IMG/VR virus record: IMGVR_UViG_2740892421_000006
Source of the DNA: a virus
Lineage: Duplodnaviria; Heunggongvirae; Uroviricota; Caudoviricetes
Length of the DNA: 8,277 nt
Strand: one strand, 5' to 3'
Shown here: positions 2,800 to 8,277 of the stretch, in pieces
Layout of the letters: each line of letters starts with the position of its first letter
Position numbering within the stretch: position 1 is the stretch's first letter
Position numbers and translations under genes: made by a program
Notes under the pieces: generated by a model
What the model saw: the letters and a program-made list of their open reading frames with translations, nothing else
What the model was told of the DNA's origin: nothing
Databases searched by the model: none

Positions 2800-3219
2800 A
2801 TGAAAGCAAAAAACTTAATGATTCTAATGCTAACCACGTCACTAATTGGGTGTTCGTCTTCGTCTATATCTATTTCAAAGGCAAAGGATGCACCTCAAAG
2901 CAGAATATTTAAATATCAAACACTACATGAGTCTAGTCTAACAATAGTTCGAGACAAAGGGCTGGTTGGTTCTGCATGTAACGCTTCCATTTTCATCAAT
3001 GGAGAAACGGCTGCAAAGCTAGAACCTGGTGAAAAAGCAACTTTCTACCTTAACGAAGGAGAGTGGATCGTTGGGACATCAATTGAAAGTTCAGGTCTTT
3101 GCGCATTTAACCCCTCCAGGATGGAACGAGAAATAAAGCTAAAGCAGGGCGACTCGAAAACATATCGGGTTTTCACTACCTGGGATGGTACAATGGACAT
3201 ATTGCCAACCACTTTATAA
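2800..3219 (+). CDS. putative lipoprotein (139 aa), predicted outer-membrane sorted
   Basis: N-terminus MKAKNLMILMLTTSLIGCSSSS: hydrophobic h-region plus lipobox L-I-G-C; residue +2 after Cys is Ser (no Lol avoidance Asp). Stop TAA 3217-3219. Confidence 0.65.
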   Translation: MKAKNLMILMLTTSLIGCSSSSISISKAKDAPQSRIFKYQTLHESSLTIVRDKGLVGSACNASIFINGETAAKLEPGEKATFYLNEGEWIVGTSIESSGLCAFNPSRMEREIKLKQGDSKTYRVFTTWDGTMDILPTTL

Positions 3220-3748
3220 TGATATGACGACGAAAGATATCACCTACGGCATACCGGCTGAAGTATGGCCGCGAGACTACGAACATGCTGAACGCACCTT
3301 GCTCTTCTGGCGGAGAGCTAAATTTCCTGTAAGAGTCACTCTCGAAGACGGCCAAGTGTTTTGCATGTACGTTTATGGTCTCATGTCATCTCGTAACAAA
3401 GTTGACCTTTGTCCAACTCCATTTGACAAAGAAAATCGTATAAGGCTCCCACTTGAGCGCATTAGCACAATTGAATCAGGCGTAATTGATGGCATTGATT
3501 ACGATTTCAAAGGGAGACTAACAATACACCCTGACTATGTAGACAACCAGCCATCACGTCGTGACTTTTTTAAGATATGTCGCAAGGCTTATCAAAACGG
3601 CCAATCTATAAGGGTCTACATGGCAGACGGCCGCGAAATTGAGGGAACGTCAGATGGCGTTGATGCCTGCCTAGTCACACTTAAGTTGAACGACGGCAGA
3701 AAAATTCTTGTTTTCTTCGATTGGGTTGAACGAATTTTACCTTTTTGA
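3185..3748 (+). CDS. hypothetical protein with internal tandem repeat, possibly Rof/YaeO-like; start uncertain (3185 or 3224)
   Basis: Long ORF; the alternative ATG at 3224 lies 5 nt after the lipoprotein stop. Two similar segments (VRVTLEDGQ...NRIRLPLERISTIE and VTLKLNDGRKILVFFDWVERI). By memory the first resembles E. coli Rof (LTLELKDGE...SRKNVEY...RELRLDKITS); not verified. Confidence 0.55.
   Translation: MVQWTYCQPLYNDMTTKDITYGIPAEVWPRDYEHAERTLLFWRRAKFPVRVTLEDGQVFCMYVYGLMSSRNKVDLCPTPFDKENRIRLPLERISTIESGVIDGIDYDFKGRLTIHPDYVDNQPSRRDFFKICRKAYQNGQSIRVYMADGREIEGTSDGVDACLVTLKLNDGRKILVFFDWVERILPF
3692..3748. repeat. direct repeat copy 1 (3' end of the 187-aa gene)
   Basis: gacggcagaaaaattcttgttttcttcgatt... 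is ~93% identical to 4058-4114; this copy encodes the C-terminal DGRKILVFFDWVERILPF. Confidence 0.85.
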
Positions 3749-3751
3749 GTT

Positions 3752-4048
3752 ATGAAATCGATACTATTGACATCATTATTTTTAGTTTACTCAATTTCAG
3801 CCAATGCAAAGGATGATATTGCAATTATTAAGTCGCTGATGCATGACGTATGCTCAACGTCTCAGAATATTCCAGTTTGTATGTTTCAACTTTCAGCAGC
3901 AGTAAAACTAGGGATAAACATAGGTAAGACCGCTCAACTATGTGAACAGGTGGAAAATTATGAACCATGTGAATTGAACAACTCTTCATTGCTGTTCGTT
4001 GATGCGCTTTTTGACACCAATCGTAAGGCTGTAGAGTCAGTCCGATAA
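3752..4048 (+). CDS. small secreted 4-Cys protein (98 aa), paralog A
   Basis: Signal peptide MKSILLTSLFLVYSISANA with AxA-type cleavage site; mature part has Cys at 34, 43, 64, 73 (C-x8-C-x20-C-x8-C). Stop TAA 4046-4048. Confidence 0.6.
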   Translation: MKSILLTSLFLVYSISANAKDDIAIIKSLMHDVCSTSQNIPVCMFQLSAAVKLGINIGKTAQLCEQVENYEPCELNNSSLLFVDALFDTNRKAVESVR

Positions 4049-4123: not shown

Positions 4124-4423
4124 ATGAAAACTGTAGCAGCATTCACATTCTTAACTTTCATTTTTAGCTCTTCCGCATTTCCTCAAGAAAATAGCATTGA
4201 ACGAGTGCAACGTGTCTCTACAGAGTTGTGTTCAAAGGCGGAAGACTACGATTTGTGCATGTTAGACCTAAGCATGGCTTTAGGCGCTGCATATCAAGAT
4301 GGACTGATCGTTGCGGGATGCAAGTTGGGACTTGATGAGCCTTCGAAAGACAAATGCGAAAACTCGGAGCGTTTTCAGGAATATATAATAAAAGAAATCA
4401 GGAACTATGCAAAAAAGATGTAA
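4124..4423 (+). CDS. small secreted 4-Cys protein (99 aa), paralog B
   Basis: SD agga 7 nt upstream; signal peptide MKTVAAFTFLTFIFSSSAF; Cys at 36, 45, 66, 78 (C-x8-C-x20-C-x11-C), the same spacing class as paralog A, including the shared C-x8-C-M-x2-L-S motif. Confidence 0.6.
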   Translation: MKTVAAFTFLTFIFSSSAFPQENSIERVQRVSTELCSKAEDYDLCMLDLSMALGAAYQDGLIVAGCKLGLDEPSKDKCENSERFQEYIIKEIRNYAKKM

Positions 4424-4438
4424 ATTCCTATAAGGGTA

Positions 4439-4468
4439 ATAACCGGCTAAGTCCGGTTATTATTTTAC
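4439..4468 (+). terminator. Rho-independent terminator
   Basis: 8-bp stem ataaccgg (4439-4446) / ccggttat (4453-4460), loop ctaagt, then tattttac; 16 nt after the stop of paralog B. Confidence 0.65.
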
Positions 4469-4599
4469 ATGCCATTCGTTTAACACTCATTCAATTCTCC
4501 CCCGTATAAATATATATAAGGTCAAAAGCCGGAATTTATTATTTATTTAGGGAACACCTTCGACGATCTAACTTTTATTTCTAGGACTTTCATCCCTGC

Positions 4600-4647
4600 A
4601 AAAAAACTTAAAAAAACACTTGCAATCTTTTTTCGCGTATCGATAAT
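4600..4647 (+). promoter_or_regulatory. sigma70-like promoter with A-tract UP element
   Basis: A-rich tract aaaaaaacttaaaaaaacac (4600-4619), -35 ttgcaa (4620-4625), 16-bp spacer, -10 gataat (4642-4647); about 60 nt upstream of ATG 4707. Confidence 0.45.
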
Positions 4648-4706
4648 TGGACTCATCGAAAGCGAAATCGCTAACGACAATTAAATTTATACTAAGGATT
4701 GAAATC

Positions 4707-5635: not shown

Positions 5636-5640
5636 AATCG

Positions 5641-5665
5641 AGCGCCCACTATGGGCGCTTTTTTC
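5641..5665 (+). terminator. Rho-independent terminator
   Basis: Stem agcgccca (5641-5648) / tgggcgct (5652-5659), 3-nt loop, then a T6 run; 6 nt after the stop of the 76-aa gene. Confidence 0.75.
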
Positions 5666-5685
5666 GTTTCCAATACTCCCACCAT

Positions 5686-5712
5686 AACGCGCCATCATTG
5701 GCGCGTTTTTTA
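5686..5712 (+). terminator. second (tandem) Rho-independent terminator
   Basis: 8-bp GC-rich stem aacgcgcc (5686-5693) / ggcgcgtt (5700-5707), loop atcatt, then ttttttatt. Confidence 0.7.
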
Positions 5713-5980
5713 TTGTCTTTAACTCGCTCCAACAACATAAAAATAAGCACCAAAATAACGCCATAGACGCACTTTTATATCCTTACCAGTACATACCCAT
5801 TACTTAACACATTAACGCGCTTAAAACGCGTTATATTGCGCTATAGAGTATGGTTAATCATTGGCTTTTAGTCTTGCTATGTGATCCGCGTTTATTTGTC
5901 GGCGCGGATCGGTTCTTTGTGTTGTTTTGTATCCGCTCGCGTATTATGTGCGCGTGATTTTTCACATAATCACACCACTT

Positions 5981-6932: not shown

Positions 6933-6936
6933 GTTT

Positions 6937-7869
6937 TCAACTGGAATAAGAATAATCTGTATTGATGAGTAAAGGCGCATCATCCACTAATCCTGACAGA
7001 AACCAGCGAGCAGTCCCGTAAAGTTCAAGGGCGTCAAGATAGCCTTCATGCAGTGCACCAACCCCAAACACATCATTATCAGCCATAGCTACCGCATCTA
7101 CGGCCAGATACTCTATGAGTTCTTCCATGCTTTTTATATTTATATCGTCTAAAATCTCCAGTTTGTTCTCAATCTCATTGAAAGGGATATCCGGCATCGA
7201 ATGCACTATGATTTTTGGCACATCATTCTCATTATTTACCTCCACAATAACAATTCCATACTCTGTAAAAAGAGAACTAAAGAATCTATTAAACTCTAAA
7301 TTAACAAAAGATGCCGAACCATTTAAACGCTCAACATATGGGGAACGAAAAGCTGAATGTAAATTATTTTTTCTACTTTCCTTGCCATATTCTATAATCA
7401 ACTCTTTATTTTTGATCTTCTCGAGTATTCCACCTAGCTCCTCTACAATTAAAGCGCCAGTGTTTTCTCTTTCTTTTGATACTATAGTTGAAAGACTGAT
7501 CAAGGCTTCTGTTATACTGTTATTAGAAACGATCAGATGAAATAGCTCCAGCATAGCCAATCGACCACTATCAGTGAACGTAACAAAGTTTATTGCATCT
7601 ATTTCATTTTTAATCGCAAGAAACTCACATTTATTTTTGATGTTTTCCCGAATTGACATCTCCACACGCTGTCTTATTCTCAACACCTGCTTAAAGTAAG
7701 TATTTTCAAAACATTCGACAGAAAATGTCTTCTTACCATCATTCACAATAGCCAATCTGTATTCACATTCAAGACCATTAAGTTCAAGGCAATCACAGTC
7801 ATATTGGGACCCATCTTTAACTGAAAACAATTCACTAATGTCAATTTGTCCCAAAAATACTGGTTTCAT
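6937..7869 (-). CDS. hypothetical protein (310 aa), AT-rich cassette gene
   Basis: Minus-strand ORF with SD agga upstream of ATG (7867-7869); appears markedly more AT-rich than flanking DNA; bracketed by the two repeat copies. No recognisable catalytic motifs. Confidence 0.65.
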   Translation of the reverse strand: MKPVFLGQIDISELFSVKDGSQYDCDCLELNGLECEYRLAIVNDGKKTFSVECFENTYFKQVLRIRQRVEMSIRENIKNKCEFLAIKNEIDAINFVTFTDSGRLAMLELFHLIVSNNSITEALISLSTIVSKERENTGALIVEELGGILEKIKNKELIIEYGKESRKNNLHSAFRSPYVERLNGSASFVNLEFNRFFSSLFTEYGIVIVEVNNENDVPKIIVHSMPDIPFNEIENKLEILDDINIKSMEELIEYLAVDAVAMADNDVFGVGALHEGYLDALELYGTARWFLSGLVDDAPLLINTDYSYSS

Positions 7870-7949
7870 TTTTAATTCCTCGTTTGTTTTCGATGTGATA
7901 ATTATCGCTGAATGAAATAGGCTAAAAAGAAGATTTGTAAGGCAACTAT

Positions 7950-8001
7950 CTGGAAGTAAGGCAAAGGGTGGTCATTTAAGACCACCAATGCTGGTGGCCT
8001 T
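7950..8001. repeat. cassette-flanking repeat, right copy (tandem hairpins, contains Chi octamer)
   Basis: ctggaagtaagg ... ggtggtc-atttaa-gaccacc (7967-7986) overlapping ccacca-atgc-tggtgg (7982-7997); GCTGGTGG at 7990-7997. Relative to the left copy it lacks an ~18-22-bp internal segment. Confidence 0.8.
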
Positions 8002-8006
8002 AATAA

Positions 8007-8150
8007 TTATCGCCCGATTACGCTAAGGATCTTTTCCTCAACTGATTTGTTGTTGCGACTAAACTGCCTTGCGTATCTGATGACAGAAGAGGCGTTTCGC
8101 TTTCTGACCATCTCGGCTCTTTCCTTCAGGCGTTTCTTGAAATCGCCCAT
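8007..8150 (-). CDS. small basic ORF (47 aa), not in the supplied ORF track
   Basis: Found by manual translation: ATG at 8148-8150 (minus) to TAA at 8007-8009, MGDFKKRLKERAEMVRKRNASSVIRYARQFSRNNKSVEEKILSVIGR; its start is 2 nt after the stop of the upstream partial ORF; SD-like ggtgg upstream. Confidence 0.4.
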   Translation of the reverse strand: MGDFKKRLKERAEMVRKRNASSVIRYARQFSRNNKSVEEKILSVIGR

Positions 8151-8152
8151 AT

Positions 8153-8277
8153 TTACCACCAGGCGCAGAAGGTCAGTCTGTTATTGTGAAAGTCGTGGTT
8201 CCTGATCAGGTCTTCCACAAGCTCTTTCAACTCCCCCACATCATGCCAGTAACCTTCATCGTACTCCTGACTGCCGA
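8153..8277 (-). CDS. 3' end of a gene extending beyond the window (last ~40 codons)
   Basis: Manual translation of the minus strand: ...GSQEYDEGYWHDVGELKELVEDLIRNHDFHNNRLTFCAWW then TAA (8153-8155); open to the window edge. Confidence 0.45.
   Translation of the reverse strand, partial: GSQEYDEGYWHDVGELKELVEDLIRNHDFHNNRLTFCAWW

Follow-up and report, generated by a model that had tools for sequence, protein, structure and literature searches.

The window considered here, a stretch of 8,277 nucleotides from the IMG/VR virus record IMGVR_UViG_2740892421_000006 (Caudoviricetes), is part of an SSU5-supergroup phage-plasmid of E. coli, and it carries a gene at 3224..3748 (+ strand) whose product is, by sequence comparison, a member of the FljA family. 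This FljA-like gene belongs to the backbone of nearly all SSU5-type phage-plasmids, those of Klebsiella and Yersinia pestis included, and it is under purifying selection. The protein is predicted to begin with a conserved, flexible motif that leads into two Sm-like barrels, with no DNA-binding domain, and it would most likely act as its characterized homologues do, by binding the leader of an mRNA and repressing its translation. An earlier note on the window had proposed instead a tandem Rof-like protein that inhibits the host factor Rho, a proposal that is weighed below.

The protein itself is already catalogued. It has an identical RefSeq entry, it matches PF03614 and PHROG 1444, and the copy in phage SSU5 is annotated "putative repressor of phase 1 flagellin". 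The additions made here beyond annotation are modest, and consist of the assignment of a predicted fold to FljA and of backbone status to an orphan clade of its family. The label "transcriptional regulator" is misleading for the FljA family. As an orphan, the FljA-like gene is maintained in the clinically widespread SSU5/pHCM2/pMT1/pKpn phage-plasmids, non-flagellated hosts included. The identity of its target could reveal an effect of lysogenic conversion on motility and on flagellin-based immune detection or, alternatively, a post-transcriptional control step in the life cycle of the phage-plasmid.

Family membership, reading frame and conservation

The assignment to the FljA family is carried by profile searches. 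PF03614 (Flag1_repress, "repressor of phase-1 flagellin") matches the protein with 268.4 bits against a cut-off of 24 (E=3.2e-80), over positions 1-170 of the 170 in the profile, and PHROG 1444 matches with E=9e-98. All of the aligned relatives (45/45) match PF03614 as well. The family is a small one, with only 29 clusters recovered by a profile search of 1.84 billion representative proteins; among them is cluster P0209, which we take to be Salmonella FljA. Aligned from end to end, the window protein has 35-38% identity with canonical FljA-type proteins and 19 invariant residues in common with them, and the positions T7, G9, E13, P16, R17 and Y19 do not vary in any of 45 family members, the canonical types included.

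FljA, the repressor of phase-1 flagellin in Salmonella enterica, and the products of fljA-like genes from E. coli and from pBSSB1, a linear plasmid of S. Typhi, have the same length as the window protein and are collinear with it throughout. Common to both are an N-terminal D-I-T-[YW]-G...W-P-R-D-Y signature, a C-terminal D-W-V-x-R-I signature and a tandem Sm-like architecture, the last being a prediction for each. The differences lie in context and in surface. Canonical fljA is found directly after the second flagellin gene, as seen in pLG26p2, and usually accompanies an invertible promoter (10.1101/2025.10.27.684867) and a site-specific invertase, whereas members of the window clade are orphans. 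Unlike FljA, the window clade is a positionally conserved component of the SSU5-type backbone and persists in hosts that lack flagella, and at the surface positions E23 and R57 it differs systematically from canonical FljA. Neither Pfam and NCBIfam searches nor the predicted model gave a helix-turn-helix or any other DNA-binding domain, a PDB sequence search with the window protein returned no match, and PADLOC gave no defense-system match for the FljA-like protein.

The coding sequence and the extension that a mechanical reading adds to it are as follows:

3224..3748, + strand: FljA-family coding sequence, 174 amino acids plus stop, as defined by PF03614, PHROG 1444, the coding sequence of the Prokaryotic Genome Annotation Pipeline (PGAP) and the N-termini of homologues
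3185..3223, + strand: in-frame upstream extension of the mechanical open reading frame, overlapping the end of the open reading frame 2800-3219 and lying outside the PGAP coding sequence and nearly all homologues

The open reading frame 3185..3748 (+ strand, 187 aa), from which the earlier note worked, is present in the window, and its first 13 codons overlap the upstream open reading frame, which ends at 3219. Homologues, both close and distant, start at an equivalent Met (M-x-x-x-D-I-T-Y-G). The identical protein WP_032083927.1 (174 aa, labeled "transcriptional regulator") is given the same starting Met by PGAP on two plasmids. Because the homologues and PGAP agree on this Met and the longer reading overlaps the upstream frame, the true start is almost certainly the ATG at 3224 and not 3185, and codons 3185..3223 are probably not translated in this protein. 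Two database records need comment in this connection. SSU5_121 of phage SSU5 (locus L083, 4064-4510), the copy that bears the phase 1 flagellin label, was deposited as 148 aa; its frame is open from an earlier ATG (MTNITDITYG...) that gives the usual length of about 175 aa, so that the deposited start is too late. P0081 (171 aa), a protein labeled as Gemella morbillorum, has a normal enterobacterial FljA-like N-terminus over its first ~71 residues, followed by an unrelated, low-complexity-looking remainder; its 2-kb contig, assigned to a Gram-positive organism, is probably a chimeric or contaminated assembly.

The 8.3-kb window matches about 245 E. coli plasmids, 749 plasmids in PLSDB, and the phages SSU5 and Cyrano. 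The matching plasmids are roughly 105-116 kb in size, are almost all non-mobilizable IncFIB replicons, and come from Klebsiella, Escherichia, Enterobacter, Yersinia and Salmonella. Siphovirus structural genes, for portal, terminase, capsid and tail, lie on the same replicons as the homologues of the window. The SSU5 supergroup includes pHCM2, pMT1 and pKpn (PMC7969092). Within this supergroup the order ParB, helicase, small open reading frame and FljA-like gene is kept in SSU5, Cyrano, pMT1 and Klebsiella elements.

A tblastn search found the FljA-like protein in 831 plasmids, over at least 80% of its length in 822 of them. Among plasmids that have the neighboring SSU5-type helicase, the gene is carried by every one from Escherichia (229/229), Enterobacter (92/92) and Yersinia (62/62), and by 341 of the 354 from Klebsiella. 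The ratio of non-synonymous to synonymous substitution rates (dN/dS) is 0.07-0.2 between elements from different hosts, and two Klebsiella-resident alleles are separated by 96 synonymous and 72 non-synonymous changes, with dN at 0.2 and dS saturated. The gene is also expressed. The Cyrano orthologue CYRAN_114 (locus L084, 4871-5392) is transcribed in the LF82 lysogen, with log2 values of ~4.2 in overnight lysogeny broth (LB), ~7 in cell medium and ~8 in macrophages, and the neighboring lipoprotein gene CYRAN_115 has the same expression pattern (PMC9928086, Table S1).

A more distant relative is found on pC714_2 of K. pneumoniae (locus L093, 2495-3031), a related phage-plasmid with another replicon type. 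The copy there is 38% identical to the window protein and occupies the same syntenic position. It lacks the W-P-R-D-Y motif, having E-R-N-L in its place, and the nearby non-coding blocks are still conserved.

Two predicted Sm-like modules and the resemblance to Rof

The fold was predicted with AlphaFold2 from the 45-sequence alignment, as a monomer. The segments into which the model divides the protein are listed here with their helices (H), strands (E) and, where given, the predicted local distance difference test score (pLDDT):

3224..3280, + strand: conserved N-terminal motif, residues 1-19 (D-I-T-Y-G-x-P-A-E-V-W-P-R-D-Y), predicted flexible, pLDDT 50-66
3281..3478, + strand: predicted N-terminal Sm-like module, Rof-like, residues 20-85 (H20-32, E35-40, E45-54, E59-63, E72-76, E80-85)
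3479..3556, + strand: inter-module linker, residues 86-111, pLDDT down to 57 at ~101-110 and the most variable columns of the alignment
3557..3745, + strand: predicted C-terminal Sm-like module, more Hfq-like, residues 112-174 (H112-124, E128-133, E138-147, E150-154, E160-164, E168-173)

In this model (pLDDT 85) the same string of elements occurs twice, a 13-residue helix being followed by strands of 6, 10, 5, 5 and 6 residues. Each module appears as an N-terminal helix and a strongly bent, five-stranded antiparallel sheet that closes into a small barrel, which corresponds to the Sm fold as far as the prediction goes. The geometry between the modules is uncertain (predicted template modeling score, pTM, 0.55). 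A canonical FljA-type relative is predicted to have the same architecture (pLDDT 77, pTM 0.73).

That the protein contains two similar internal segments, as the earlier note had claimed, is borne out by this predicted repeat and by comparison of the halves as profiles, and it is weak at the level of sequence. A Smith-Waterman comparison of the two halves of the single sequence gave only an off-register alignment, with a score that was reached by 23 of 2000 shuffles (p ~0.01), and HHalign, run with the whole family alignment against itself, found no internal repeat. When the N-terminal and C-terminal halves of the family were taken as separate profiles they aligned with a score of 20.9 (P=8e-4), a value that one of 200 column shuffles reached (z=4.7), and they did so in the register that had been proposed. 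The accompanying motif, R-[IL]-x-L-x(2-4)-ERI in both segments, holds for the first (RIRLPLERI, residue 72) but has no literal match in the second, where the ERI at 169-171 is offset structurally by three residues from that of the first.

Several comparisons place the modules in the wider Sm-like superfamily. Weak Pfam Hfq/LSM matches fall in the C-terminal module of 19 of the 45 family members, with a best E of 5.7e-4. The single sequence of E. coli Hfq aligns with P=0.0034 to the N-terminal module and P=0.02 to the C-terminal module, and that of Rof with P=0.0009 to the N-terminal module. In structure Hfq is closer to the window protein than Rof is, so that Rof is not the nearest fold. Hfq and other (L)Sm proteins have one module per chain and assemble as homohexamers, whereas the window protein would have two Sm-like modules on one chain, at 13-20% identity. 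In the BFVD database, viral structural relatives covered single Sm-like modules and in no case the full length, and neither a solved FljA-family structure in the PDB nor a paper on the FljA fold was found.

The same note had suggested that the first segment may be similar to Rof. With the E. coli Rof sequence taken from the K-12 genome, the suggested alignment is reproduced by BLASTP (VRVTLEDG... against LTLELKDG...), but the match is non-significant (E=0.43). The Rof family profile PF07073 (ROF) gave no match at E<=10 to the window protein or to 45 relatives in Pfam and NCBIfam searches, and a Rof hidden Markov model (HMM) run with filters off gave non-significant scores of 2-8 bits, with family members at 4-8.5 bits. 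More sensitive comparison does support the resemblance. With an enterobacterial Rof profile, HHalign aligned Rof 1-81 to residues 3-91 at 58% probability, and this rose to 76% (P=2.3e-5) after the divergent V. cholerae YaeO had been added from a PDB alignment. The diversity of the Rof profile is narrow, given that the 120 best matches listed were all at least 85% identical and a contig scan gave only enterobacterial Rof at 87% identity or above. Of 150 column-shuffled Rof profiles none reached the score of Rof to the N-terminal module (z=9.4), and reversed profiles gave noise; the same Rof profile aligned to the C-terminal module at 11.6% (z=4.7). HHalign also pairs the motif at residues 1-19 with the Rof N-terminus MNDTYQPINCDDY.

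As judged from these alignments, the resemblance to Rof is real, and represents remote homology within the Sm-like superfamily that is strongest for the N-terminal module, rather than membership of the Rof family. Family membership, for which an HMM search had been put forward as the check, fails on the absence of a PF07073 match beside an FljA match at E=3.2e-80. Comparison of the predicted structure with Rof, the other check that had been put forward, gave a mixed answer: Sm-like modules are predicted and the first is Rof-like, but Hfq is the closer structure. Rof/YaeO is a single domain of ~84 aa (80-86) with free termini at the Rho interface (PMC11018626), whereas the window protein has two domains in 174 aa; the partner of Rof is a protein, Rho, while the activity of the FljA family is directed at the translation of mRNA; and the yaeP gene that neighbors rof has no counterpart beside the window gene.

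Mechanism, target and alternative readings

FljA is said to bind the fliC 5' leader directly, a finding attributed to Yamamoto and Kutsukake in 2006. Characterized FljA proteins block translation of fliC mRNA (PMC2652032; 10.1101/2025.10.27.684867), and FljA was at first described as a transcriptional repressor before its action was revised to post-transcriptional control (PMC2652032). By homology with FljA, the window protein would bind the 5' leader of a target mRNA in a sequence-specific manner and, once bound, would keep ribosomes from loading and leave the transcript open to decay. We consider such leader binding and translational repression to be the most likely mechanism, and on balance a probable one. 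The tandem Sm-like barrels of the model, the first a remote homologue of Rof and the second more Hfq-like, may offer a structural rationale for the action of FljA on mRNA.

A number of observations weigh against this reading, and in particular against flagellin as the target. The residues of the Hfq proximal pocket, Q41/F42 and K56/H57, are not kept in the window protein on a reading of the alignment, and a literature search found no paper on any phage-plasmid member of the FljA family. There is no flagellin or invertase gene within several kb of the FljA-like gene in the window, SSU5, Cyrano, pMT1 or the Klebsiella elements, and pAMPD1, a complete relative, has none along its whole length. 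Selection has kept the gene in elements from Klebsiella, Y. pestis and Shigella, and Klebsiella pneumoniae, Y. pestis and Shigella are non-flagellated; E. coli LF82 is flagellated although it carries Cyrano. With non-flagellated hosts carrying the gene and LF82 retaining its flagella, constitutive repression of host flagellin is not the whole story. A target on the element itself finds no direct sign either. A search of the window and pAMPD1 with the E. coli K-12 fliC leader gave chance matches only (best 12 nt, E=0.5), and Rfam at E<=1 gave nothing credible on the element.

Since the gene is selectively maintained in hosts without flagella, the target is probably not, or not only, flagellin mRNA. 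The host fliC leader has the merit of being the only precedent, and by analogy with FljA it is a tentative candidate that we hold to be rather doubtful. Another mRNA, either of the phage-plasmid itself or one that is conserved among enterobacteria, is at least as likely as flagellin, though still short of an even chance; such an other or additional target is favored because the gene is kept intact in elements of non-flagellated hosts. One further line of evidence was considered and rejected. Flagellin mRNA in LF82 drops where CYRAN_114 rises, which might be taken as a sign of flagellin targeting, but the whole flagellar regulon falls and FljA acts post-transcriptionally.

The labels "transcriptional regulator" and "transcriptional repressor" that PGAP and PHROG apply would point to a different activity, in which the protein is a DNA-binding or ligand-sensing regulator, for instance a WYL-like Sm barrel acting as a sensor of single-stranded nucleic acid to regulate promoters of the phage-plasmid. 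The conserved non-coding blocks and promoter just downstream, at 4545-4647, would fit such a role. The two predicted Sm-like barrels and their linker account for the whole chain, however, with no DNA-binding domain and no PADLOC match, and the conserved downstream motifs are single-copy on the element and so do not form an operator set. The labels themselves go back to the first account of FljA as a transcriptional repressor, since corrected to control after transcription (PMC2652032). We regard transcriptional regulation as improbable.

The question of Rho can be addressed at the level of individual contacts. In the cryo-electron microscopy structure of Rho and Rof, contacts are made by I8, C10, Y13, D14 and E17 of helix 1, by K47, N48 and E50 of the beta3-beta4 loop, and by the C-terminal carboxylate; Y13A and D14A each abolish Rho binding, and an N-terminal tag inactivates Rof (PMC11018626). 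These contacts were mapped onto 41 phage-plasmid homologues through the HHalign alignment, with a mixed result. Y13 corresponds to an invariant Tyr (Y19), E17 to Glu (E23) in 40 of the 41, K47 to Arg (R57) in all 41 and N48 to Asn (N58) in 38; in canonical FljA the E17 and K47 positions are Ala and Glu. Of the 41, 23 carry Ser, 8 Lys and only 5 Glu at the D14 position, and the window protein has Glu (E20) there; C10 is replaced by Pro and E50 by Leu or Val. The helix opens with RD[YF], which has counterparts in the C-terminal module (RDFF) and in Hfq (DPF); to that extent the match to Rof is structural and generic to the fold.

These contacts leave room for a role in which the phage-plasmid clade is a core regulator and not a flagellin repressor. 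Its N-terminal module would be a true Rof homologue that keeps part of the Rho-binding face (Y19, E23, R57, N58), and it would couple to Rho a specific mRNA held by the C-terminal module and a basic surface. The target transcript would then be shielded from Rho, or Rho would be delivered to it. On this view, too, a Rof-like Sm domain would have given rise to the FljA family, and it may be that Salmonella FljA is a domesticated phage-plasmid gene, as may be compared with Hin and the phage invertases. Coupling of this kind is an unlikely possibility.

The stronger proposal of the earlier note was that a tandem Rof-like protein binds the N-terminal domain of host Rho and suppresses Rho-dependent termination on the element. 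In its favor, this allele has the same or similar residues at five contacts (Y13 to Y19, D14 to E20, E17 to E23, K47 to R57 and N48 to N58), and E23 and R57 are conserved in the phage-plasmid clade and not in canonical FljA. Phage elements can inhibit Rho, an example being Psu of satellite P4 (PMC11718236). Nevertheless, the position of D14, whose replacement by Ala kills binding, is mostly Ser or Lys, two further contacts are substituted at C10 and E50, and part of the helix match belongs to the fold in general. The carboxylate contact is impossible, as the chain does not end after the first barrel but continues into another. The lack of a ROF match, the poor BLASTP and HMM scores and the closer structural likeness to Hfq all count against it too. 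Rof is toxic when overproduced (PMC11018626), yet the window gene resides on stable multicopy plasmids, and translational repression is the sole activity tested for the family (PMC2652032). The associated idea of read-through of the many terminators in the region finds no support either. The terminator-like sites in the window are of the intrinsic type, at which Rho plays no part, so that Rho inhibition would not affect them. Their number, 11, shows no enrichment over the 7.1 +/- 3.4 expected, and they are clustered at 5640-5954. Rho inhibition as the function of this protein is therefore very unlikely.

Finally, the view that the gene is a functionless passenger or the decaying remnant of a flagellar phase-variation cassette of an ancestral element, to which its orphan state without partner flagellin or invertase and its many non-flagellated hosts might point, has next to nothing left to recommend it, given a reading frame intact in 822 of 831 plasmid matches, dN/dS of 0.07-0.2 with Klebsiella-resident alleles included, a position kept even by the divergent copy with 38% identity, and transcripts seen in a lysogen (PMC9928086).

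Neighboring genes and the downstream non-coding region

The FljA-like gene lies between genes for predicted exported proteins, and a conserved non-coding region follows them:

2800..3219, + strand: lipoprotein gene, with a signal peptide and Cys lipobox (...LIGC); PHROG 890, E=2e-50
3752-4048 and 4124-4423, + strand: two small paralogous signal-peptide proteins directly downstream; PHROGs 9536 and 27673 (function unassigned)
4433..4466, + strand: terminator-like hairpin with U-run that closes the gene cluster; 14 bp, -15.3 kcal/mol, z=-3.9
4545-4561: invariant block ATTTAGG(G/C)AACACCTTC
4575-4590: invariant block TTATTTCTA(A/G)GACTTT
4620-4647: sigma-70-like promoter, TTGCAA-16-GATAAT

The stop of the lipoprotein gene falls 4 nt before the ATG at 3224, and the two genes are likely to be co-transcribed and translationally coupled in this element. 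The same order of lipoprotein gene and FljA-like gene is found in SSU5 and pMT1. In Cyrano and the Klebsiella elements the lipoprotein slot is filled by a different gene on the opposite strand, which makes it a variable spot beside a fixed gene. The two small downstream proteins, of 98 and 99 aa, each have paired cysteines (C-x6-7-C, twice) and match one another by BLASTP with E=3e-5.

The non-coding region 4424-4706, between the second of the genes for small secreted proteins and an open reading frame of PHROG 1513, is far more conserved than the flanking genes among six phage-plasmids, and its conservation extends to a divergent Klebsiella element. All six phage-plasmids keep the hairpin at 4433-4466, which shows compensatory changes in the Klebsiella element that is divergent, and one such change turns AGCG/CGCT, a short hairpin in the leader, into AGCA/TGCT in Klebsiella. 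Both invariant blocks and the TATAAGGGTAA motif (4429-4439, at the 5' edge of the hairpin) occur in a single copy each on pAMPD1, and no link was established between the region 4424-4706 and the FljA-like protein.

Further along, strong hairpin-plus-T-run sites on both strands lie at 5640-5660, 5686-5707, 5882-5911 and 5938-5954, where rightward and leftward gene blocks converge. Rfam gave a weak, sub-threshold match there to isrK, an Hfq-binding small RNA (5642-5711, E=0.75).

The right end of the window, 6933-8277, is a variable segment, in that the match to the closest plasmids, at 98-99% identity, stops at ~6932. An open reading frame within it, at 6937-7869 (- strand, 310 aa), is without a Pfam, PHROG or PADLOC match. 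On pAMPD1, the closest complete relative (locus L087, 16748-22165), a Tn3-like transposon of the TnAs1 family adjoins a gene for a PAS-domain methyl-accepting chemotaxis protein, and this chemotaxis gene represents motility-related cargo on an element that also encodes a homologue of a flagellin repressor.

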